Below the pieces are notes generated by a model. The model had not been told where the DNA came from. It was given only the letters and a program-made list of their open reading frames with translations, and ran no database searches. From the IMG/VR virus record IMGVR_UViG_2778261527_000008: a stretch of 35,461 bases of DNA; one strand, 5' to 3'. The DNA is from a virus. Taxonomy: Duplodnaviria; Heunggongvirae; Uroviricota; Caudoviricetes. Positions 1 through 34,023 of this stretch are shown here, in pieces; the first letter of the stretch is position 1, and every line of letters begins with the position of its first letter. Made by a program: the position numbers and the translations under genes.

Positions 1-21
1 ATGCGAGGGACAGTCGAAATT

Positions 22-351
22 ATGCGTTATCCCGTCACTCTTACACCCGCGCCGGAAGGCGGTTATATGGTTTCTTTTGTGGATATCCCTGAAGCGTTGA
101 CGCAGGGCGAAACTGTCGCTGAAGCGATGGAAGCGGCAAAAGATGCTTTACTGACCGCATTTGATTTTTATTTTGAAGATAACGAGCTTATCCCGTTACC
201 TTCGCCATTAAATAGTCATGATCACTTTATTGAAGTACCTTTGAGCGTCGCCTCTAAAGTATTGCTGTTAAATGCTTTTTTACAGTCAGAAATCACTCAG
301 CAAGAGTTAGCCAGGCGAATTGGCAAACCTAAATGTTGTAAACCCCAATAA
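22..351 (+). CDS. hicB: HicB-family antitoxin, C-terminally divergent/truncated (frame open from window position 1; first plausible ATG at 22)
   Basis: Translation MRYPVTLTPAPEGGYMVSFVDIPEALTQGETVAEAMEAAKDALLTAF... matches my recollection of the enterobacterial HicB N-terminal domain; ORF ends ...RRIGKPKCCKPQ* at 349-351 where canonical HicB continues into a DNA-binding C-terminus; GC content drops after ~334. Confidence 0.55.
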   Translation: MRYPVTLTPAPEGGYMVSFVDIPEALTQGETVAEAMEAAKDALLTAFDFYFEDNELIPLPSPLNSHDHFIEVPLSVASKVLLLNAFLQSEITQQELARRIGKPKCCKPQ

Positions 352-1703: not shown

Positions 1704-2258
1704 ATGAAAGAAGAATTAACCCTTACAGAAATTTCCCGTTTATACGGCTATTCATTGAATGGTGGCGCTAAGCGATGGATAGAAAGGGGATTGCCATTTA
1801 ACACCAATACCCGCCGCGTGCCAGCCAAAGAAGGAACAGAATGGGTCTTGAAAAATATTATCAACCCGCTTAAACAAACTTCTATCAAAGAACAAATCGA
1901 TGTAGAGAAATTACGCCGTGAACGTGCTTTGGCAGATGCAGCCGAACGAGAGAACCAGGAAAAAATGAATCTCCTGATTCCTGTCGGTTATGTAGAACAG
2001 GAACTAGCGGAATATTGCGGGAAAGTGAAGCAGACTATTTTGCAGATCGCCACAATTGACGTTTTGGAAGTTCTCGAATCTGCCACCGACCAGAAAACAT
2101 TGAAGAACAAATTAAGGGAGATCATCGAGCGTCGTTTAAATGAAGTAGGGGACTTGTTCGAAAATGCTGATTTGGGAGAAGACGAGGAAGAAGAATTACC
2201 ATTAATGGATGAACCGGAAGAAGAACCAGAAGAAGACGATGAATTTGATGTGTCTTAA
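1704..2258 (+). CDS. terminase small subunit, Nu1-like (winged HTH N-terminus, acidic C-terminus)
   Basis: 184 aa; N-terminal LTLTEISRLYGYS...WIERGLPF HTH-like segment, EKLRRE segment and acidic tail reminiscent of lambda Nu1 architecture; RBS GGAGGA; same strand as terL. Confidence 0.5.
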   Translation: MKEELTLTEISRLYGYSLNGGAKRWIERGLPFNTNTRRVPAKEGTEWVLKNIINPLKQTSIKEQIDVEKLRRERALADAAERENQEKMNLLIPVGYVEQELAEYCGKVKQTILQIATIDVLEVLESATDQKTLKNKLREIIERRLNEVGDLFENADLGEDEEEELPLMDEPEEEPEEDDEFDVS

Positions 2259-3230: not shown

Positions 3231-4232
3231 TTAAGCTGCGTATGCGTAGGCGCTGTAGTTGGTGTCGTAGATAGCGTCATGCAGTGCCATCTGTGCTTCG
3301 CGGATCTCGTCTTCGTTTACTTCAATCTCTTCTTGTTCTTCTTCGGTATCTTCCCAAGTGGTTTTGAATTTAGCCATAAAGTTATTGCGCAGGGATTCAA
3401 AGTTAGTAACAGGTGCGGATTTTTCTTCAACCGGAACTACTACCGGATCAGCTTCTTTCTGTTCTTCCTGTTCTACTTTTTCACCATTACCCCAGCGATA
3501 GTTAAGGAGTTCTTCCAGTTCTTCATCAATGGATTTTTCTTCAACTGCTTCAACTTCAACCGCTGCTACTTCGAAAGTGGTTTCCTGTGCTGCCAGTTCA
3601 GCTTTCAGAGATGCGTTTTCAGCTTCCAGTTCAGCAATGCGTGCTTTCAGTGCTTCAACTTCGGAAGATTCAACCACTGCAACTTCTTCTTTAACTTCTT
3701 CAACTACTACCGGAGCAACTTCTTTCTGTGCTTCTTTTTTGCAGAAGAAGGAGGAAGTAACCTGTAATGCGTGGTTGTAGAAGGAACCGCCTTTAGCGGT
3801 GTTAACAGTACCAGAAACATCCTTTACAGTGGATTCGGTAGCAACAGTACGGAAGCGTTTTGCGACTTCCTGGGTCTCTACGCCGTATTCGTTACGCTTG
3901 CTCTTGTGATGCATTACAGCACGGAAGCCGGAAGCAGTTTTAACAACAGCCAGATAGTAAGTTTCATCGGCTTTAACAGCACGAGCGAAGCAATAAACGG
4001 ATTCACCTTCTACCAGTGTAGGTTTAACGTGACGTTTGTCGAAACGGTTAGTGATCTGCCATTCAGCACCGTCTTTGATGCCAGCATTCTGACGCATTTC
4101 GGTCAGAGTCTTACCGGATACTACTTCAAAGGATTTGTCTTGTTTGCTTGCTTTACCTTCCATGACGGTAATGTTCAGTTTGCCGTTGGATTTAATAAAC
4201 AGGTTGAAGGTGATGCGCTTAGAATTTTTCAT
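3231..4232 (-). CDS. hypothetical protein: basic N-terminal domain, coiled coil, strongly acidic C-terminal tail
   Basis: 333-aa ORF with GGAG RBS; EVEALKARIAELEAENASLKAELAAQ coiled coil; Glu-rich tail; family not recognised. Confidence 0.5.
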   Translation of the reverse strand: MKNSKRITFNLFIKSNGKLNITVMEGKASKQDKSFEVVSGKTLTEMRQNAGIKDGAEWQITNRFDKRHVKPTLVEGESVYCFARAVKADETYYLAVVKTASGFRAVMHHKSKRNEYGVETQEVAKRFRTVATESTVKDVSGTVNTAKGGSFYNHALQVTSSFFCKKEAQKEVAPVVVEEVKEEVAVVESSEVEALKARIAELEAENASLKAELAAQETTFEVAAVEVEAVEEKSIDEELEELLNYRWGNGEKVEQEEQKEADPVVVPVEEKSAPVTNFESLRNNFMAKFKTTWEDTEEEQEEIEVNEDEIREAQMALHDAIYDTNYSAYAYAA

Positions 4233-4349: not shown

Positions 4350-4532
4350 TTACCAGACCTCGGCGGTAATCTTTACTTTAATGTCATACTTCTTTAAGAG
4401 TTTGTGGAAGGTTGATTGATCAATACCTTCACCTTTAAACCATTCACCCATCACTACATCAGGTGTCAGTTCAAAATAACGCTTTGCCATTTCTAAAACG
4501 ATTTCACGAGTGAACTTAACAGGTCGTGCCAT
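4350..4532 (-). CDS. small hypothetical protein (60 aa), possible DNA-binding regulator
   Basis: ATG preceded by AGGAGG RBS; first gene leftward of the noncoding control region. Confidence 0.4.
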   Translation of the reverse strand: MARPVKFTREIVLEMAKRYFELTPDVVMGEWFKGEGIDQSTFHKLLKKYDIKVKITAEVW

Positions 4533-4874
4533 CTTATATCCTCCTAAATCTGGAATAATGATTTCTTAAAAAAGAGCTTTTCGCTCTGAACAATTCTATT
4601 TATAAAATGTTTTTCGAAAAACCCTGTAAAACCACTGTATATCCGATCAGTGGGAGCACGAATTGCTAAAGAGAAGATTAATAATTAATCAATTCGTACA
4701 TTATTCAATCGAATAAGCACTGTATGTTTAGCCAGTTCTGTATGAATTAACAGTGAGTCAGGGGATTTTCAGAAGTGAACAATCATTTCATGCATGTATT
4801 TATACACGAAAAAATCTTGCGTATCATCAATATGGGGATTGTTTCGAAAATTTCAACCCCTACCAACGAGAAAA

Positions 4875-4903
4875 AGCATAAAATAATCCTTGACAGTTGT
4901 CAA
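4875..4903 (-). promoter_or_regulatory. candidate sigma70 promoter reading leftward, embedded in palindrome TTGACA-gt-TGTCAA
   Basis: on minus strand -35 TTGACA (4903..4898), 17-nt spacer, -10 TATGCT (4880..4875); the palindrome could also be an operator. Confidence 0.3.
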
Positions 4904-5100
4904 TACACTTGATCTAAGCGAGAGATGACTATCAAAATTTTTGTGTGAAAATGGCGGATAACGATTATCAACCTTTATAACCTATTATAGCACGGCGACC
5001 TTTTGATAATTCTTTTTAAATCATGCATTTACGGCGATTTTTGGTGATTTTCTGGTTAAATAATATACAAGAATTTTCTATCAAAATTTTTGATGAAAAA

Positions 5101-5220
5101 CCTACACTACAAACCTACGCTTTAAAGGGATTGGCCTACACTACACTAGCCAGTAAACCTACACTATAACACCCTCAAACCTACACTATGAAACCTACAC
5201 ACCTACACTAACCCTACACT
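5101..5220. repeat. iteron-like direct repeat array, core CCTACACT (6 perfect + 2 variant copies)
   Basis: copies at 5101, 5114(var), 5135, 5158, 5180, 5194(var), 5202, 5213; three successive spacings of 21-23 bp; often preceded by AAA. Confidence 0.6.
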
Positions 5221-5408
5221 TCAATCTCATAAGTGTATGATATTGAAAGACATTTCACCCCACAGACCATAGAATATAAAATTCGAACTAACGTTCTCCT
5301 TTTTGCTCGTTTTCTCTCACTACGTTCAAGAAAGATCTCGCAAAAAGAATACGGCGTAGCCGTGCGCGAAGCGCCCATCAACACCTTCTAAGACCTGCAA
5401 GCAGGATT

Positions 5409-5561
5409 CGAAAGGGATTGGATAGTTCGCTTCGCTCACGTTCACGCCTACGGCGTTCACTCGCTTTTGAAAGGATTTTCTTAGAAAGGGATTTAATACT
5501 AGTTACTAACTGATTCTAGTAAACGAACGAAGTGAGTAACAATCACTTTCTAGAAAGGTAT
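5409..5561. repeat. second direct-repeat family GAAAGG(G)ATT (4 copies)
   Basis: copies at 5409, 5468, 5483, 5552 inside a GC-richer structured segment. Confidence 0.4.
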
Positions 5562-5799
5562 TGGTTATCCCTTCGGGATTGCAACCTTCGGTTGCTAAAT
5601 TGCTTCCTGATTATTATTTCTCCAAAAGAAAGATTCTTATATTCTAAAGATACTTCTTCGTTTTGATGATGATTTAATCAAACCATGAAGGAGGGCTTTA
5701 GCCCGACTGAATACAATCACCTTTCATAATAACAAGAATTTTCTCTTTATAAATAATAGTGAACTTACTTGATTCACTTTCTTTTAGAGGATTTCCACT

Positions 5800-6267
5800 A
5801 TGAACCATAAAATGACTACCACTACTCCTTTTATCCTTCTGGGTCTGGATTCTGATAGCTTCCACAATGACAAGTTAATGAAGATGTTCCGTGAACGTGG
5901 TTATAACATCCTTTTCAACTCTGATGAATCCCATTTCTCTAGTGCATGGTATGCGTTTTACCGTAATAAGAAGCCGACCATTGTAGTTAACTGCTTCACC
6001 GATGAAGAACGCTTAAAGTACCAGGATCTACCAGCAATTATTGTCCGTGATGATCTGCCGTTTCAAGTCCGTTCCGGTGACATTGATCTGGGTAGCTTCG
6101 TTACTGTCTATGAACTGGATGAAGCAATGTTTAACTACGGCAAAGAAACCGCTCAGGAAGCCCCAGAAGAAGATGAACAAGACGAAGATGACGACGACTA
6201 CGCACCAATCTGTTTTTCTTCTCAGAATGGCTTCTACGGTTACGACGAAGGCTTAGATATGCTGTAA
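5800..6267 (+). CDS. hypothetical protein with strongly acidic C-terminal tail (EEDEQDEDDDDY)
   Basis: 155-aa ORF, AGAGGA RBS, E. coli-like codon usage; first rightward gene after the control region. Confidence 0.5.
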   Translation: MNHKMTTTTPFILLGLDSDSFHNDKLMKMFRERGYNILFNSDESHFSSAWYAFYRNKKPTIVVNCFTDEERLKYQDLPAIIVRDDLPFQVRSGDIDLGSFVTVYELDEAMFNYGKETAQEAPEEDEQDEDDDDYAPICFSSQNGFYGYDEGLDML

Positions 6268-6302
6268 GTTAGGTCAACCCTTTGGCGTCTTGTCAAGGGG
6301 TA

Positions 6303-6331
6303 TTGACAAAAATTTCTGACTTTTTTATGAT
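6303..6331 (+). promoter_or_regulatory. candidate sigma70 promoter
   Basis: -35 TTGACA 6303-6308, 17-nt spacer, -10 TATGAT 6326-6331; upstream inverted TGTCAA at 6291-6296. Confidence 0.35.
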
Positions 6332-6389
6332 TGTCGCACTTGACAACTTTAAACCTATTTGACCTAGATTTGTAAATGGGGTGTTAATT

Positions 6390-6536
6390 ATGAACACTAC
6401 TAAGAAAATTGATGGACGTAAAACCCCGAACCGCAAACCGTGGACCCCAAACCTGAATTTCTCAATGGTTGACTTCCATGAACGCCAGCGTCGCATTCAA
6501 GAAGAAATTGATCGCGCGATTGCTGAATCTAAATGA
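6390..6536 (+). CDS. small basic protein (48 aa)
   Basis: ATG at 6390 with GGGG RBS; MNTTKKIDGRKTPNRKPWTPNLNF...; below ORF-track cutoff. Confidence 0.35.
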   Translation: MNTTKKIDGRKTPNRKPWTPNLNFSMVDFHERQRRIQEEIDRAIAESK

Positions 6537-6633
6537 GATAAAAACTTCTTATAAATAAAATTGTTCCGGTGATGCTGCCGGAACTAGGAGGATCAATATC
6601 ATTATCGCAAAACCGTTTAAGGGGAATTTAATT

Positions 6634-7440
6634 ATGAATACTGTTACTGCTATGAATACTACTAAAACCGCTTCCGTGTCTCTGGTTGTTGATAACACCA
6701 AACCGCTGACCATGTCTTCTCGTCAGATCGCTGAATTTACCGGAAAGAAACACTTTCACGTAAAACGCGACATTCGCGAAATGCTGATTACCTTAGAATT
6801 AGATGAATCCAAATTTGGATGCATCTTTTTTGATCAATATGGACGCGAGCAAACAGAATATCACTTGAATGAAGAACTGACTCTGACTCTTGTCACTGGT
6901 TACAATATCCAGATGCGAAACGCGGTTATTCAGGAATGGAAGCGACTGAAAGAAGAAAATGAAAAACTTCGCTCTACTCCGGTTAACCCGTATGCAGACT
7001 TTGAAGAAACCGACTGGATCGAACTGGCGTTAAAGAAAACTCGCGAGAACAAGCAACTGATTACTCTACATCATCGCAAATCCGTAGATAGCCATTCAAT
7101 GACGCGTTTGTTAGGTGCTAAAAAGGGCGCTACGAAGGTTAAAGAAGCACTGACGGCCTTACGTACTGCCGGATACATTGAGCGCGTCTATGATGAAAAT
7201 AACAAGCCGTGTGGGTATGTTGCTAATGATTCCGCGATACCGTTTTGCAGCATGAACGCTCACTATCAACTTTCTTTCACTGTTGATGTGCTTCCGGTGC
7301 TGGTTGAATTGGGTGTTCTTGAAGAAGAACAAAAAGCAGCTTTGACACTGCCTAAACCGAATAACACGATCATGATTCAGAATAAAGCGACTATCATGAT
7401 TCGTCAGAATGTTGGATCGCTAGAACACTTCGGACTGTAA
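6634..7440 (+). CDS. phage regulatory protein, Rha-family antirepressor-like
   Basis: 268 aa; N-terminal SSRQIAEFTGKKHFHVKRDIREML typical of Rha/ORF6N DNA-binding domain; AAGGGG RBS. Confidence 0.55.
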   Translation: MNTVTAMNTTKTASVSLVVDNTKPLTMSSRQIAEFTGKKHFHVKRDIREMLITLELDESKFGCIFFDQYGREQTEYHLNEELTLTLVTGYNIQMRNAVIQEWKRLKEENEKLRSTPVNPYADFEETDWIELALKKTRENKQLITLHHRKSVDSHSMTRLLGAKKGATKVKEALTALRTAGYIERVYDENNKPCGYVANDSAIPFCSMNAHYQLSFTVDVLPVLVELGVLEEEQKAALTLPKPNNTIMIQNKATIMIRQNVGSLEHFGL

Positions 7441-7448
7441 TAATTTTT

Positions 7449-7473
7449 GCCCCTGAATTTCAGGGGCTTTTTT
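7449..7473 (+). terminator. rho-independent terminator
   Basis: gcccctgaa-t-ttcaggggc perfect inverted repeat followed by tttttt. Confidence 0.6.
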
Positions 7474-7522
7474 GTATCTGTAGGTATAAAAAAAGCCAAC
7501 CCCGAAGGATTGGCCTAGAGAA

Positions 7523-7753
7523 TCAAATTCCTGTTGCTTCTACCATTTCACCATCAACCTGAACAAAGAATTTCAAATCAACTTTATGAAGGGATTTGTA
7601 TAGCTGGGCTATGGATAAGCCATGCTCATTTAATACCCGCTCTTTGTTCTCTTTACCTTTCGGTGCTTGATAGTACGCTTTTACAATCGCTGCCAGTTGT
7701 TCACGATTAAAACGGGCAGGGCGACCGCGAGTAGCTTTAGTAGTCATAGTCAT
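7523..7753 (-). CDS. small putative DNA-binding protein with AT-hook-like RGRP motif (76 aa from internal ATG)
   Basis: ORF track starts at a GTG; the ATG at 7753..7751 has a GGAG RBS; MTMTTKATRGRPARF... Confidence 0.4.
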   Translation of the reverse strand: MTMTTKATRGRPARFNREQLAAIVKAYYQAPKGKENKERVLNEHGLSIAQLYKSLHKVDLKFFVQVDGEMVEATGI

Positions 7754-7782
7754 TTTCTCCAAATTAAAGTGAATGTTCACCT

Positions 7783-8388
7783 TTATTTAGAGGACTTACA
7801 TTTTATCGGAAAAAGTTCTCCATCGTCAACCGACATAAAGAACTCTGCCTTAATCCCGTACTTCTTCAACCGTGAATAATATGTACCCCGACTAATATCA
7901 ACCTTGCGCAGCACTTCGAAGAACTCTTTAGGATTCCTGTAATAGTGGCTATATCGCACGTTAGCGAGTTCTACAAACAATTCCCTTGTATCACCATAGC
8001 CTTTCTTGAAAGCCACGTTACGATAGCGTGTAATGGCATGATTCAATCTCTTCTGTTTAAGCACTTCCCTGATCGGCTTCCACTGCAACCGATAGATAGG
8101 ACCGTCATCAATGCGATAATAACGCTTGATATCAAAATCAAACCAATCTCGGACTCTCCGAAACTCTGTATGTGATGTTCTATGCTTCTTAAAGAAGTTG
8201 TGAACGTCTCTATAGCCATTATCACGGTAAAATTCTATTAAAATCTCTTTCGCTTCCTCACGGCTAAACCCAGATGTTGTGTAATCGGTCTTTAAGTGCT
8301 TATGTTTTACTGGCAAACGATATTCATGATCGGTACAACAAGACAAGGCTAATTCTACTTCATCTCTTTGTTGCTGATTAATTAGCAT
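7783..8388 (-). CDS. hypothetical basic protein with C-terminal HTH-like segment
   Basis: 201-aa ORF; Arg/Lys/Tyr-rich; ISRGTYYSRLKKYGI resembles an HTH recognition helix. Confidence 0.45.
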   Translation of the reverse strand: MLINQQQRDEVELALSCCTDHEYRLPVKHKHLKTDYTTSGFSREEAKEILIEFYRDNGYRDVHNFFKKHRTSHTEFRRVRDWFDFDIKRYYRIDDGPIYRLQWKPIREVLKQKRLNHAITRYRNVAFKKGYGDTRELFVELANVRYSHYYRNPKEFFEVLRKVDISRGTYYSRLKKYGIKAEFFMSVDDGELFPIKCKSSK

Positions 8389-8474
8389 ACACCCTCCTTA
8401 AATCTTAATACCGTATTTATCAAAATATAAACAATTTAATAAATACCTTCATATTTCGTAATGAGGGTAATTAC

Positions 8475-10382
8475 ATGAAACTGATTTCTAATAAGGCAAA
8501 ATTAAAAAAGATTCTCAGAAATGCAGCCAAATATATTACGCCACCGCCTAAACTCCTTCCATCGGAATGGTGCGAAGCGAATCTAACGCTAGTCGATGGT
8601 CCTCGTGCTGGGGATAAAGTTAAATTGCTGTCATTTCAGAAAGGCATGATTGATGCTCCTTTCCTTGAGAAGAAAAAGAAGTACGTTTTTTGTACGAGTG
8701 CGCAGATCGGAAAGACGACCATCATGTCAGGGATCATGTTTAACCAGATGGCAAACGATCCGTGTAATATCATTATCGGGCAAAGTACCGCTAAAGAAGT
8801 GGCTATGTACTTGAATACTAAGATCCGTCCTTCTATTGAAGCATGTCCGGCATTACAGGAAGTGGTAACAGATAAGAATGATCGTAATGCGGTAAACAAC
8901 AATAACCAGATTCAGCTAAAAACAAACCATTTCCTTTACATGGTTTCTTTGACCAGTCCTTCAAGTTTGCGCGGGCGTACTGCCAAGTTAGGGATTGTAG
9001 ACGAATGCGACGCAGCAACAATCACCGAAGAAGGTTGCCCGGTGGCACTAACTGCAAACCGTTTAACTACCTTTGGTGATGAAGCTCGATTGATTGTTTC
9101 TAGTACCCCGACCAATAAGCTGGGAATCATTAACCAGCAATGGTTATCAAGTGATATGCGTATGTTTTTTGTTCCGTGTCCTCATTGCGGGGAACACCAG
9201 GTGATCGAGTGGGAAAACGTTCAATTTGAATGGCGTAACATTGATGGTAAGAACTTACCCGATCCTGATACCGCTCGTTATATTTGCCCCCACTGTAAGA
9301 ACGCATGGACAGAAGGGGAACGAATCAGGGCAGTAGCGCAAGGCGAGTGGAGAGCAACCCGTGAAAGTGAAGTAGCAGGATTCTGGATCAGTCGTCTGTA
9401 TTCACCTTTCAGCACGATCCGCGCTTGTGTGGTTGATTTTAGTCATGCGTGGCAATCCTTTGATTTACAATCCTTTTTTAACACCGTGTTAGGCAAGGTA
9501 TACGACGATCAGGACACGGCAGTAGAAGCAAATGAACTGGAACAACTCAAAACAGATGTTTCTATCGAGAATATCCCTGATGACGTGATTTTCTTGTGTG
9601 CGGGTACTGACCAGCAATTAGATCGCGCAGAAACTACGATCATGGGCGTGGCAAAGGATAAGATTTATATTCTGGATCACCGCAGCTTTTACGATCATAA
9701 CTGTGAACGATATGAATCACCTGTATGGGATAGATTAATCAACTTCCATAAAACCAAATTTACTACTGTATCGGGTGATCGTGTTCCTATGCTCGCCAGC
9801 TTCCTTGATACATCGAACGGTCGATTCACTCAAGCTGGATACCGTATTTGCGGCAAGTGGAAGAACTTACACGCTATCAAAGGTAGTTCTGCTGGTAACG
9901 CTCCGATCATTCCGGTTAAACCTACCCGCACAGGTGGTCATGAATTGCTTATGCTGGGCGTTAACGTTGGGAAATCCGCTGTTCGTGAAATGCTGGTTAG
10001 AAACCTGAAAGATAATCCTCATATTGGCTTAGAAATATCAGAAACCATTCCTGATGATTATCTCGATCAGCTTTTGAGTGAATCCATCAAGCGTACTACT
10101 ACTGGCGTGCGTTGGGTGAAAAATCCAGGTAGTACCCGAAACGAGGCTCTCGACTGTCTGGTTTATAGCTATGCTGCTTCTCGCTACGTTCTTTCAAAAA
10201 TGTCATGGGATAAACTCATTGCAATGAAAGACAGCTTAAACCGTGTTGTCGAAGAATCCGTAGAAGCTCCTAAATCGCAATCTGACGAGCAAATCGAAGA
10301 AAATAAGCCAATCACACGACCACAACGTAAAAACATCGCCAGACGCCCAAATAGAGGCCGTAGCTGGGTAACATCGTTCTAA
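8475..10382 (+). CDS. terminase large subunit, lambda GpA family
   Basis: 635 aa, size and motifs (zinc-finger-like CPHCG...CPHC segment) consistent with GpA-type terminases; GAGGG RBS. Confidence 0.8.
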
Positions 10383-14714: not shown

Positions 14715-15005
14715 ATGTTCAAATTATCAGAATCACAATTAAATCGAATGTTTAAAAGTGCTCCTGTATTTTCGGTGGAAGGTGGTAAATCAATTCGTGC
14801 TTATCATGAAATTACTACTACCGACGAATCGGGGGTAATGACAGAAACAGAATTTCTATTCTGTCGTGAGGGAGACTTAAAGCAAGGTGATATTGTCACA
14901 GTAGAAAACCAGCGTTTCAAAGTTCAATACGTTAAGCGCAATGGTGACAATACTTGTGATTGCTTTATCACTTTAGCAGGGGGTACACATGCTCGCTACC
15001 GTTAA
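14715..15005 (+). CDS. head-tail adaptor / head completion protein (candidate)
   Basis: 96-aa ORF directly after capsid gene, AGGGGG RBS; synteny only. Confidence 0.4.
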   Translation: MFKLSESQLNRMFKSAPVFSVEGGKSIRAYHEITTTDESGVMTETEFLFCREGDLKQGDIVTVENQRFKVQYVKRNGDNTCDCFITLAGGTHARYR

Positions 15006-15411
15006 TAATATGCCGAGACTGAAAATCAAACGCGCCTTGCAAGATATTATCGAACAAGATTTAGGTCTGGCTTTAAACGTAGAACAAACTCAGCAAGGCT
15101 TTAGTGATGACGTGGTTTGTTGGATTACTGGCATGAATGAGACTTACACAAGGGTCCGTGGCGGTAATGCAATGCAAGCTGAATGCGTTATCGAAATGCA
15201 GTTATATTCTCAGATTCATGAAACGAAAATTCATGAGGGTATTTGCCAGATAATCCAGATTCAGCCAGATAACCCACGATTTAAAGATTTGGGCTTCTCT
15301 ATTTCAGATATCACTCCAGTAGCTTCTAATACCGATTATGACGATGATTCTAGTGATGGGGGTATCGTTGGGACACTTAGCCTTAAATTTTCTTATCTAG
15401 CGCGTTTTTAA
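14989..15411 (+). CDS. head-tail joining or tail completion protein (candidate)
   Basis: 140-aa ORF overlapping previous stop by 17 nt; synteny only. Confidence 0.35.
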   Translation: MLATVNNMPRLKIKRALQDIIEQDLGLALNVEQTQQGFSDDVVCWITGMNETYTRVRGGNAMQAECVIEMQLYSQIHETKIHEGICQIIQIQPDNPRFKDLGFSISDITPVASNTDYDDDSSDGGIVGTLSLKFSYLARF

Positions 15412-32280: not shown

Positions 32281-33960
32281 TTAAATTCCAAATTCTTGTA
32301 ATGGACCTGGTATTTCTTCTTCTGGTTTCCAGTTCTTATCTGTCAGCATGTCTAAACATGGATGCAGAACAAGCCCGTTACTCTCCAGAATCTGCCTATC
32401 ATTGATAGTCTTCAAATCAACGAAGATCCGGCCTTTCCTCGGTCCTCTTGAATTTTCTATTACAACTCTCTGGGTCTTGCCATCGATGTATTCCAGTACA
32501 AACAAGTTTTTGTACTTGTCAATCCTGCTACACCCGATCCGTTTTAGAGCTTGCTTAATCTTAAACCGGACCTTAATGCGATCCTCGTTGTAAACATCTT
32601 CTAAATCAAATTCTGCGAGCTTCTCCCAGCCTTGAGAGTCAACAGAATACATTTCCTCTTCTGCCATCTTAAGTTGATTGTAGAGTGTTTCACGCTCGCT
32701 ATTGAGGGTAGTAATCTGATCGGCTAGCTCCTTCGTTGCTCCTGTCATAGCAGAAAGGGTAATCAGGTTATCAATCTTGCGTGATATTTCATCAATCTGT
32801 ACTTTCAAAGCCGGAACCGGATTAGCCTTATCTTCAGCAATCCAGATTTTATCAGCCAGCAATTGCAATACAGCTTTCTCTAATTGGTCGCCGCGAAAAC
32901 TCCAGTTTGTATGCACACATTCAATACGACTAGAGCGCATTGCATCGCATGAATAACGATATTGGTTAGGCCGTCTGTTTGTTCCTTTCACCTTAACCAT
33001 AGCGGAACCGCAATGTTCACATTTCAATAGACCAACACCACTAAGCAAGGGAATAGGTTTAGCTTCTTCTTTGTCTCCAAAGTTACATGCTCTAACACCA
33101 ATGCTTTTCTTAAGGTGATAAAACTCAGCGTCATCTAGCACACGAGGATAATAATCCTTTAACTCATACTTAACGCCATCTACAGAGATTTCCTTGATAC
33201 CAATCAAAGCGCGGGTATGGAACAACCTTTCAATCATTGCCCGTGACCAGTTTGAATGCCTCTTGTGACTTGCGGCTGGTGGTGGTGTGTATGTCGCGTT
33301 AAGGTGATCCAGTATCTCGGCGGTTGACCGTCCATTCCTGCGTAATTCCACAACTTCCTGAACAATAGGGAAGAAGACCGGATGAGGAAGCACATAACCA
33401 GATGTGGTATCAGTCCACCACATATTCTTTCCAATTTCCTCGATTGCAACAGCCGGATTTTGTGGATTTTCTTGATGAGCTTTAATCTTAATCAGTGCGC
33501 TTGAGTTAGTACGATTGCGCTTAGTCTGGCTTTCCTCATTACCACGGATGAATAAAAGGATGGAGAACATCAGGTCCATCGGGTTAGCGGTAACAGTATC
33601 AAGCGAGTAGATCTTGTTATCCATGCCAGTAACAATGGTTATCCCCCTACGGATGATTGAAAGGAATAACTCCTGCGCACTGACAATATCGGCACGGGAT
33701 AAACGGTCCAAGTTTTCGATGAATAGCCAGCTACCAACAGGAACGGATCTACCTATTGCATCAAGGAAACGAGATAGCGCCCCTGTTTTGGAGTTAGCAC
33801 CCTTAAACGCAGATACACCCAGATCCTGATAATCATTTACCAGTTCAAGGTCATACTTTACCGCAATCTCTCTAGCCATCCTGATTTGTCGTTCATAACT
33901 CGAACCATCATTCTGACGCATAGACGAGAAGCGAATATACGAATACAGTTTAGTTTTCAT
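32281..33960 (-). CDS. large serine recombinase (integrase/resolvase family)
   Basis: 559 aa from ATG at 33960; N-terminal resolvase catalytic motif YIRFSS..Q; Cys-rich zinc ribbon CEHCG...C..C; coiled-coil segment. Confidence 0.8.
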   Translation of the reverse strand: MKTKLYSYIRFSSMRQNDGSSYERQIRMAREIAVKYDLELVNDYQDLGVSAFKGANSKTGALSRFLDAIGRSVPVGSWLFIENLDRLSRADIVSAQELFLSIIRRGITIVTGMDNKIYSLDTVTANPMDLMFSILLFIRGNEESQTKRNRTNSSALIKIKAHQENPQNPAVAIEEIGKNMWWTDTTSGYVLPHPVFFPIVQEVVELRRNGRSTAEILDHLNATYTPPPAASHKRHSNWSRAMIERLFHTRALIGIKEISVDGVKYELKDYYPRVLDDAEFYHLKKSIGVRACNFGDKEEAKPIPLLSGVGLLKCEHCGSAMVKVKGTNRRPNQYRYSCDAMRSSRIECVHTNWSFRGDQLEKAVLQLLADKIWIAEDKANPVPALKVQIDEISRKIDNLITLSAMTGATKELADQITTLNSERETLYNQLKMAEEEMYSVDSQGWEKLAEFDLEDVYNEDRIKVRFKIKQALKRIGCSRIDKYKNLFVLEYIDGKTQRVVIENSRGPRKGRIFVDLKTINDRQILESNGLVLHPCLDMLTDKNWKPEEEIPGPLQEFGI

Positions 33961-34023
33961 ACCATTTCCAAACAAAAACGCCCCTACCGCGTATTATAAC
34001 GATAGGGGCCAGGTGATTAAAGA

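Follow-up and report, generated by a model that had tools for sequence, protein, structure and literature searches.

Closest described systems and the protein under study

The acidic residues of Ocr (T7 gp0.3) and ArdA cover a rigid folded surface that imitates the DNA backbone, and the acidic tails of single-stranded DNA (ssDNA)-binding proteins, namely E. coli SSB with its ...DDDIPF end, T7 gp2.5 and T4 gp32, serve as protein-recruitment handles. The subject of the present analysis is an acidic 155-residue protein encoded on the plus strand at positions 5800-6267 of the IMG/VR record IMGVR_UViG_2778261527_000008, a 35,461-nucleotide stretch of tailed-phage DNA that is referred to below, at its full length, as the window. 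A first-pass annotation made from the letters alone had put this protein forward as a candidate DNA mimic or host-takeover factor, and its observation is partly confirmed here. The protein probably acts through a short linear motif that binds another macromolecule. The reading that we tentatively favour is that of an abundant early protein whose target, bound or sequestered, would be a conserved nucleic-acid-binding protein, probably of the host.

In Gp44 of phage SPO1 a folded N-terminal domain is followed by a disordered 67-residue segment with 57% Asp/Glu and no basic residues, which has been proposed to mimic ssDNA on RNA polymerase as a flexible, non-specific nucleic-acid mimic, and the unstructured C-terminal part is required for full inhibition (PMC8208478). 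The 155-residue protein resembles Gp44 in being an early protein with a folded head, a disordered, basic-free segment rich in Asp/Glu (67% as against 57% in Gp44) and an unstructured C-terminal part, and by analogy Gp44 appears to be its closest architectural precedent. No sequence or fold relation between the two was recovered in any library search. They also differ in that the head of Gp44 is a 55-residue Xis-like DNA-binding domain whereas that of the present protein is modelled as an alpha/beta sandwich of ~108 residues, and in that the acidic segment spans 67 residues in the former and 18 in the latter. Furthermore, the C-terminal part of the present protein is, unlike that of Gp44, a sharply conserved 22-residue motif, and Gp44 belongs to a virulent Bacillus phage whereas this protein belongs to a temperate E. 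coli prophage.

A conserved gene of a narrow orphan family

The coding sequence, stop codon included, corresponds exactly to an open reading frame (ORF) of 155 codons with an ATG start at 5800-6267 (+), and its product is annotated as the hypothetical protein WP_028132403.1 in NZ_CP119011.1. PGAP annotates the gene in each of the 57 complete E. coli genomes in which the region occurs. Searches of 5.8 billion proteins recovered 79 homologues with 42-98% identity. These come exclusively from E. coli, Shigella or metagenomes, and they are labelled 'hypothetical' wherever the source gives a name. Pairwise ratios of non-synonymous to synonymous divergence (dN/dS) of 0.1-0.6 indicate purifying selection. 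The ORF list, the homologues and this selection together establish it as a real, conserved gene.

An exhaustive profile search of 1.84 billion representative proteins returned 11 matches, of which 10 belong to the same family and the remaining one is an ankyrin-repeat false positive; neither this set nor the 5.8 billion proteins contained a homologue outside the E. coli/Shigella prophage family. Among the family libraries, Pfam yielded only a sub-threshold match to DUF4835 at E<=10, PHROGs nothing relevant at E<=1, and NCBIfam and PADLOC no family, while a profile search against solved chains of the PDB gave nothing below E=0.15. The locus was also absent from GTDB sampled at one genome per species, and tblastn found no match in 50,697 GenBank phage or 72,556 PLSDB plasmid records. 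A query consisting of the linker and C-terminal tip, which asked whether the tail occurs on other domains, retrieved only 45-62-residue fragments of the same family among the matches listed, a weak test since the 8000 candidates had probably been saturated by acidic words. The sequence comparisons accordingly place the protein in a narrow orphan family that is a member of no described family, in agreement with the first-pass statement that its family is not recognisable.

Decayed copies of the gene exist among the family members (P0051, P0070 and P0079). They comprise frameshifted alleles, in which the acidic region is read in the +1 frame, and an allele of 102 residues with a deletion that joins the leader sequence to the tail.

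The acidity does not reside on the folded head

The protein as a whole contains 32 Asp/Glu as against 13 Lys/Arg (net charge -19, isoelectric point (pI) 4.2), confirming its description as an acidic 155-residue protein, and in its small size, strong overall acidity, early position and apparently high expression it recalls Ocr and ArdA. AlphaFold2 models residues ~8-115 (5821-6144, plus strand) with a predicted local distance difference test score (pLDDT) of ~80-85 and the topology b-a-b-a-b-a-b...a. The head is thus predicted to be an alpha/beta sandwich of ~108 residues, and an alpha/beta domain ahead of the acidic run had been correctly anticipated. This domain has a net charge of -4, residues 1-115 containing 17 Asp/Glu and 13 Lys/Arg (pI 5.25). 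It is followed by a polyanionic linker, ETAQEAPEEDEQDEDDDD, at residues 116-133 (6145-6198, plus strand), in which 12 of the 18 residues (67%) are Asp/Glu and none is Lys/Arg (net -12); its pLDDT falls below 50 and it is modelled as disordered. No Lys or Arg occurs beyond K115. The model and the charge counts therefore place the acidity not on the fold, 12 of the excess negative charges being found in residues 116-133, which are modelled as disordered.

These observations bear directly on the proposal of a classical rigid DNA mimic with anti-restriction or anti-RecBCD activity, of the Ocr, ArdA, Gam or gp5.9 type. The net charge of -19, pI of 4.2, small size, early position and high codon adaptation are all as expected of such a protein. 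Nevertheless, in contrast to Ocr and ArdA, the fold is nearly neutral and the charge is concentrated in an 18-residue tether modelled as disordered. No anti-restriction family was matched in Pfam at E<=10 or in PHROGs at E<=1, no DNA-mimic fold was found, and the gene is a core gene of one prophage lineage that is absent from deposited phages and plasmids, unlike the widespread anti-restriction genes. A rigid mimic is hence highly improbable. Of the DNA-mimic claim, then, the classical form is disfavoured, and the evidence speaks neither for nor against a looser one, in which a flexible polyanionic tail might, by analogy with Gp44, occupy a DNA-binding protein of the host in the place of nucleic acid; such a decoy is possible, as is the more general role of host-takeover factor that had been offered as a fallback. 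On the whole, overall acidity and early position are insufficient for calling a DNA mimic, and the location of the charge, on the fold or in a disordered tail, needs to be checked first.

A structural-neighbour search with the head model produced no significant fold match, no known DNA mimic and no OB-fold neighbour, the best neighbours being nucleotide and polynucleotide kinases and designed P-loop 2x3 folds. Across the family the polar residues R33, N36, N56, T60, D68, R71 and Y74 of the head are invariant. Both features would be compatible with the head being a small enzyme or ligand-binding domain with a degenerate kinase or P-loop-like alpha/beta fold, in which case the tail would only localise or regulate it. 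However, the Walker A motif GxxxxGK[ST] is absent after strand 1, where the loop instead reads GLDSDSFHND, and no enzyme-like family or motif was found for the protein in the library searches. We consider such a catalytic or ligand-binding function unlikely.

The conserved C-terminal tip

Contrary to the first-pass description, the protein does not end in its acidic run: EEDEQDEDDDDY corresponds to residues 122-134 and is followed by 21 more residues, APICFSSQNGFYGYDEGLDML, and it is in these that conservation within the protein is highest. The linker and the tip recur throughout the family. An acidic, basic-free run is present in 71 of 71 full-length members (median length 17 residues with 10 Asp/Glu), and the segment after it, YAPICFSSQNGFYGYDEGLDML at residues 134-155 (6199-6264, plus strand), is a candidate docking peptide with a net charge of -3, five aromatic residues and a pLDDT below 50 in the monomer model. 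This tip is exactly 22 residues long in 63 of the 71 full-length members and ends in GLDML or GLEML in 66 of them, and every aligned member has Leu as its last residue (L155, invariant). Among the four most distant members, whose domains retain only 30-36% identity, the tip is 82, 64 and 59% identical in three and 36% identical in the fourth, P0082.

In the distant loci L016 and L018 the proportion of synonymous differences (pS) is saturated in both tip and domain (0.5-0.87), whereas the proportion of non-synonymous differences (pN) is 0.10-0.31 in the tip as against 0.33-0.46 in the domain. The constraint on the tip must therefore act at the protein level, given that pN is about halved although pS is saturated in both segments. 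By these comparisons the tip is the most constrained module of the protein, a pattern often seen in short linear motifs whose binding partner evolves slowly.

Two described classes of host-directed tails were compared with the tip. The likeness to the tails of ssDNA-binding proteins lies in the order of the parts, a fold being followed by a flexible linker and then by acidic residues up to a hydrophobic or aromatic end, and DDDYAPIxF loosely resembles DDDIPF. The differences are that the present protein lacks an OB fold, that its motif extends over 22 residues and that its C-terminus is ...GLDML. An SSB-type tip was downgraded on the grounds that DDDYAPICF is internal, with 13 residues following it and no ...IPF-COOH end; as the motif DDDYxPIxF is internal, a terminal Phe carboxylate cannot be presented. 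The second class comprises beta-clamp-binding motifs with the consensus QL[SD]LF or Qx[DE][LM]F, as in Mu MuC/Mor (PMC12867686). Here the resemblance is that of a short motif at the extreme C-terminus with the centre L-[D/E]-[M/L], in a phage protein potentially coupling to the host replisome, and the hydrophobic-acidic-hydrophobic core is present as L-D/E-M in 66 of 71 members. This reading was rejected, with position 1 being Gly (Ala in P0080 and P0081) rather than Gln and position 5 Leu rather than Phe.

Proposed mode of action

The favoured explanation envisages a cytoplasmic early protein that would be abundantly made and act stoichiometrically through protein-protein binding. The tip would dock into a pocket of a highly conserved partner, thereby providing specificity, while the adjacent polyanion would lie on the basic nucleic-acid-binding surface of that partner as a flexible DNA or RNA decoy, and the head might contribute a second contact, oligomerisation or simply bulk. 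Most likely, a host DNA-binding protein would in this way be sequestered or inhibited at the start of lytic development. We infer the docking role of the tip, the identity of the partner as a host nucleic-acid-binding protein and inhibition as the outcome in part from the anatomy described above: a charge located on a disordered linker and not on the fold, taken together with a constrained tip, disfavours a rigid mimic of the Ocr/ArdA kind and fits a tethered docking peptide.

The codon adaptation index (CAI) of the gene, computed with Sharp-Li weights, is 0.50, ranking fourth among 33 prophage genes (major capsid 0.46, tail tube 0.60). The claim of high-expression codons thus holds relative to the rest of the prophage, and the value suggests stoichiometric rather than catalytic amounts of the protein. 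The relatedness of its versions showed no co-variation, in the few loci available, with the type of iteron found upstream, with the 333-, 60-, 74-85- and 201-residue proteins of the neighbourhood, with Rha or with the large terminase (TerL). That none of the neighbouring phage genes has the same relatedness pattern speaks weakly for a partner that is invariant and belongs to the host.

Gene order was examined in loci L003-L019. On the 5' side, all of them have a minus-strand gene for 297-357 residues, a minus-strand helix-turn-helix (HTH)-like gene for 59-60 residues, a non-coding stretch of 1.3-2.3 kb and the plus-strand gene for the 155-residue protein. There follow, again in all loci, a small gene (+), Rha (+), a gene for 72-85 residues (-), one for 195-203 residues (-) and TerL (+). 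Since this synteny is invariant in every locus examined, the gene is a core gene and not a variable accessory.

Several points weigh against the favoured explanation. Core status and a position beside the iteron array suit a replication or regulatory role at least equally, and anti-host cargo is commoner in variable slots, of which the next gene downstream is an example. Among the E. coli copies, the conservation of the tip partly reflects a recombination block that it has in common with the downstream promoter, as indicated by a lower synonymous divergence in the tip, by genomes that match at the DNA level only over the 3' 130-160 nucleotides, and by the mosaic map. In addition, the acidic tether is short (18 residues as against 67 in SPO1 Gp44), the invariant polar residues of the head could mark an active or ligand site, the CAI depends on the Sharp-Li weights that were entered, and the co-variation argument draws on four to seven loci.

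In its furthest extension, which strikes us as rather improbable, the tip and tether would constitute an undescribed short linear motif that plugs a temperate phage into a replication or nucleoid hub of E. coli, and the protein would be the factor, otherwise missing, with which a new modular phage replicon recruits or neutralises host components. That replicon would be characterised by interchangeable iterons, an iteron-specific N-terminal domain on an orphan protein of 300-360 residues and an absence of homology to lambda O/P, P2 A/B, P4 alpha and plasmid Rep proteins. In kind, though with low confidence, the protein resembles small acidic early phage proteins that work by charge mimicry. It differs from them in that its charge lies on a short tether, modelled as disordered, which separates a neutral fold from a sharply conserved candidate docking peptide, and in that it is encoded by a core gene beside a modular iteron region. 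Should the tail indeed be a docking peptide with a decoy, it would represent a new phage short linear motif directed against a conserved E. coli protein, with possible use as a probe or inhibitor, and it would open a first functional approach to a prophage lineage that is uncultured. Should the protein instead merely assist replication or regulation in this one lineage, the finding would be an ordinary one of mainly negative value. The surrounding control region, with its iterons, type-specific orphan protein, LexA-like boxes and recurring promoter element, deserves no less attention than the protein.

Iterons, the leftward orphan protein and a possible replicon

The non-coding stretch upstream of the gene, 1.27 kb long in the window, contains an array of about seven ACCTACACTA-type iterons at 5098-5224, three of them at 22-bp spacing. 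The stretch is non-coding without a conserved hidden ORF, because matches to it occur in all frames on both strands, and an Rfam scan of the window at gathering thresholds identified no family. Related prophages have five unrelated iteron types at this same place: ACCTACACTA in the window, seven to eight copies of TTTGCCCCTGAAA in L005-L008, L011 and L013-L015, nine to 14 copies of TGTAGGAGGT in L003 and L012, four copies of CTTGGAAGATTCC in L016, and about 15 copies of ATCCCTAG at 11-bp spacing in L018.

The leftward gene at 3231-4232 (-) encodes a 333-residue protein whose N-terminal ~140 residues co-vary with iteron type: among the 297-357-residue versions this region is 99-100% identical within a type and unrelated between types, while the C-terminal coiled-coil or acidic part is modular. 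This is the pattern expected, for example, of lambda O, making the protein a candidate iteron-binding initiator, and together the iterons and the orphan 297-357-residue protein look like a new iteron/initiator replicon. The library searches yielded no family match for the 333-residue protein, and an AlphaFold2 model built from an almost invariant alignment was unusable (mean pLDDT 41). Its CAI of 0.70 is the highest in the prophage, above those of the tail tube and capsid genes, which is odd for an initiator. Three of the four C-terminal tail types of this family end in ...YAA, ...EAA or ...LAA, which we take to be reminiscent of ssrA-like ClpXP degrons.

This setting raises the possibility that the 155-residue protein is a replication accessory or adaptor whose tip recruits a component of the host replisome (DnaB, DnaG, the SSB interactome or the beta clamp) to the origin, as part of a phage replicon with the iteron array and the iteron-type-specific 333-residue protein, in a manner comparable to recruitment by the acidic C-terminal tails of SSB and T7 gp2.5 or to the hijacking of DnaB by lambda P or P2 B. 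Like lambda P and P2 B, it is a small phage protein whose gene lies beside iterons and beside the gene of a modular, iteron-specific protein, and the phage is devoid of a recognisable helicase or primase; indeed, family-library scans detected no helicase, primase, polymerase or loader among the prophage genes. The gene is always the first one beyond the 1.3-2.3-kb iteron-bearing non-coding stretch, each of the five iteron types has its matching N-terminal domain in the leftward protein, and even the most diverged relatives keep it as a core gene in syntenic position. A tip that stays invariant while the head varies also suits a host-facing motif, and a related promoter-like element before the leftward 60- and 333-residue genes, the gene under study and Rha suggests co-regulation.

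On the other hand, there is no homology to lambda P or P2 B, and the gene is divergent from that of the candidate initiator and not co-transcribed with it. The 155-residue protein follows neither the iteron type nor the C-terminal modules that define the tail types of the 333-residue protein, and the iteron region is itself only a candidate origin. As to the tip, the C-terminus [GA][LF][DEQ][MT]L is without the Gln and Phe of the clamp motif, DDDYxP[IV]xF is internal whereas the pockets for SSB tips take a C-terminal Phe carboxylate, and the protein has no OB fold. We regard a replication adaptor as possible, though on the doubtful side.

Promoters, operators and the question of a switch function

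The gene had been taken for the first one after the control region and the head of a rightward operon. The strongest rightward sigma70-like promoter, however, lies downstream of its stop codon, and the gene is situated inside a 1.4-kb interval between two divergent, operator-bearing promoters, with a promoter-like block of its own. The rightward promoter, TTGACA-17-TATGAT (6303-6331, 11/12 in the consensus scan), falls within a region at 6290-6346 (+), immediately 3' of the stop codon, that also contains the palindrome TTGTCAAggggtaTTGACAA (TTGTCAA/TTGACAA) and a third TTGACAA. Its leftward counterpart, TTGACA-17-TATGCT at 4875-4903 (-), overlaps the palindrome TTGACAgTTGTCAA. These TTGTCAA/TTGACAA palindromes are candidate operators of a repressor. 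The half-sites are not enriched overall (seven found, about eight expected). Five of the seven are located in three intergenic promoter regions (1455-1461; 4890-4903; 6290-6309 and 6340-6346), two of which have palindromes overlapping strong -35 boxes.

The gene's own block, ATAACA-17-AATAAT at 5729-5761 (+), scores 9/12 and includes the invariant TATAAATAATAGTG at 5748-5761. Conservation was assessed over 10 loci, including the deeply diverged L016 and L018, and TATAAATAATA(GTG) lies 47-53 nucleotides upstream of the ATG in all 10; in L018, where another gene ends 108 nucleotides upstream of the start, the TATAAATAATA block is kept in the gap. The block is a putative promoter. An inverted repeat, AGTGAA-N9-TTCACT at 5758-5778 (+), was read from the sequence over the predicted transcription start and is kept in most relatives (alignment A3), making it a candidate operator or 5' leader hairpin. 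The Shine-Dalgarno sequence AGAGGA (5786-5791, plus strand) precedes the ATG by 8 nucleotides, and its GAGG is invariant in the same alignment.

Copies of the block also precede Rha (6550-6563) and the leftward 60-residue gene (4591-4604, minus strand), and these two copies form the arms of a 27-nucleotide, 89% inverted repeat with the entire control region between them. As the promoter-like element is common to all three, the gene looks co-regulated with the other early transcription units. In a wider delimitation the shared element reads TTATAAATAnAAnTG(T/A)(T/A)C and occurs at 4588-4614 (-), 5746-5778 (+) and 6540-6584 (+), with a hairpin after each copy.

Three LexA-box-like sites, CACTGTATATCCGATCAGTG (4633-4652), CACTGTATGTTTAGCCAGTT (4718-4737) and TTCTGTATGAATTAACAGTG (4736-4755, a perfect CTGT-N8-ACAG), are found 101-223 nucleotides upstream of the leftward 60-residue gene. 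The triplet recurs with the same 85- and 18-nucleotide spacing in L012 and L003 but not in the TTGCCCCTG-iteron loci, a distribution suggesting that some members of the lineage place their leftward arm under direct SOS control. The leftward genes of the region encode three basic proteins (pI 9.0-9.8), of 60 residues (4350-4532, minus strand), 74-85 residues (7523-7780, minus strand) and 201 residues (7783-8388, minus strand). By eye they have in common an Xis/AlpA-like helix-turn-helix with a wing, ..GxSxxTxYxxLKKxxIK..F.., which the 201-residue protein seemingly contains twice; none has a family match.

Against this background the protein might be a component of the lysis-lysogeny switch, namely an antirepressor or co-regulator whose acidic tail lies on the DNA-binding surface of the 60-, 74-85- or 201-residue phage proteins or of LexA. 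Its position between divergent promoters with TTGACA/TTGTCAA palindromes is that of the immunity genes in lambdoid phages, an inverted repeat directly follows its promoter-like block, a LexA-box-like triplet is present in the same control region, and three basic HTH-like proteins are available as partners. Antirepressors that mimic operator DNA are also known, CarS being a reported example (PMC2926617). Yet the relatedness pattern of the protein differs from those of all three basic proteins, and the LexA-like boxes are about 1 kb away beside a leftward gene and are missing from the TTGCCCCTG-iteron loci, which nonetheless keep the gene. Moreover, a Rha/antirepressor-like gene already lies two genes downstream, and a high CAI is unusual for a switch regulator. 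A switch function is accordingly rather unlikely.

The same position between two operator-bearing divergent promoters could be that of a lysogen-expressed exclusion or defence gene with a moron-like function in the immunity interval, comparable to rexAB in lambda. The gene is intact in at least one prophage, L011, from which terminase, portal and capsid have been deleted. However, PADLOC gave no match, the gene is core and not variable cargo, its promoter-like element is common to Rha and the leftward early genes, and the frameshifted and truncated copies in P0051, P0070 and P0079 also speak against it, so that such a function seems very unlikely.

Further elements were seen in the leader region. 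A motif (A)AAGG(G)ATT is present in about seven copies (5124, 5404-5420, 5469-5495, 5553-5580 and 5786-5793); the Shine-Dalgarno sequence of the gene, AGAGGATT, resembles it, and two copies are invariant across all variants of alignment A3. Tandem UUCG-type hairpins are located at 5567-5600, with a different hairpin at the same position in L012 and L013. These repeats and hairpins could be protein-binding sites or structured RNA.

The slot between the gene and Rha (6390-6536, plus strand) is hypervariable, encoding 48, 59, 107 or 110 residues: the window and L008 have a basic 48-residue ORF, and other loci have different genes with 11-16% identity. It is likely to be an accessory, moron or anti-defence hotspot. 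In L018 and L019, the most diverged relatives, a gene for 218 residues (7236-7892 in both loci), with weak MUG113/T5orf172-like and faint CapR matches, is inserted between the iteron region and the gene for the 155-residue protein.

The prophage and its lineage

The 35.5-kb window is essentially one complete prophage. Its DNA matched none of the 50,697 deposited phage genomes, and the TerL of the closest cultured phage is only 42.7% identical, from which it follows that the prophage represents an uncultured temperate lineage of E. coli siphophages. The region is carried by 57 of 5,426 complete E. coli genomes (~1%), always on the chromosome, with O55:H7, enterotoxigenic E. coli and Shigella isolates among the carriers of the lineage. 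No paper naming the accessions was found in the literature, and keyword searches surfaced none describing the prophage lineage. Rha is the only early gene of the lineage with a recognisable family.

A long rightward structural module comprises a gpA-type large terminase (TerL, 8475-10382), a lambda-type portal, an S78 protease-capsid fusion, tail genes and an M15 endolysin. A small-terminase-like gene at 1704-2258 (+) (phrog_57, E 1.5e-11) is the sole gene of this kind and is separated from the large terminase gene by ~6 kb, with the control region in between; its product is very acidic (pI 4.5, net charge -19). ARAGORN reported a 91-nucleotide tRNA-Glu (anticodon ttc) at 15176-15266 (-), within the rightward structural ORF 14989-15411, which is probably a false positive since RefSeq has no tRNA in this stretch of a near-identical record and Rfam none there.

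A large serine recombinase at 32281-33975 (-) is likely to be the integrase of the prophage, and relatives reveal at least two integration sites, namely hicB and a site beside a 2-hydroxyacid dehydrogenase gene. In E. coli CE0007a (NZ_CP119011.1), which is 99.8% identical to the window over the 4-kb stretch tested (4500-8500), the hicB antitoxin gene is split by the element into hicB' at the left end and 'hicB at the right end. The left junction (window 1-351, plus strand; also L001 and L002) has hicA and a 116-residue HicB' that retains its HicB_lk_antitox domain, and the right junction has a 39-codon 'hicB fragment.

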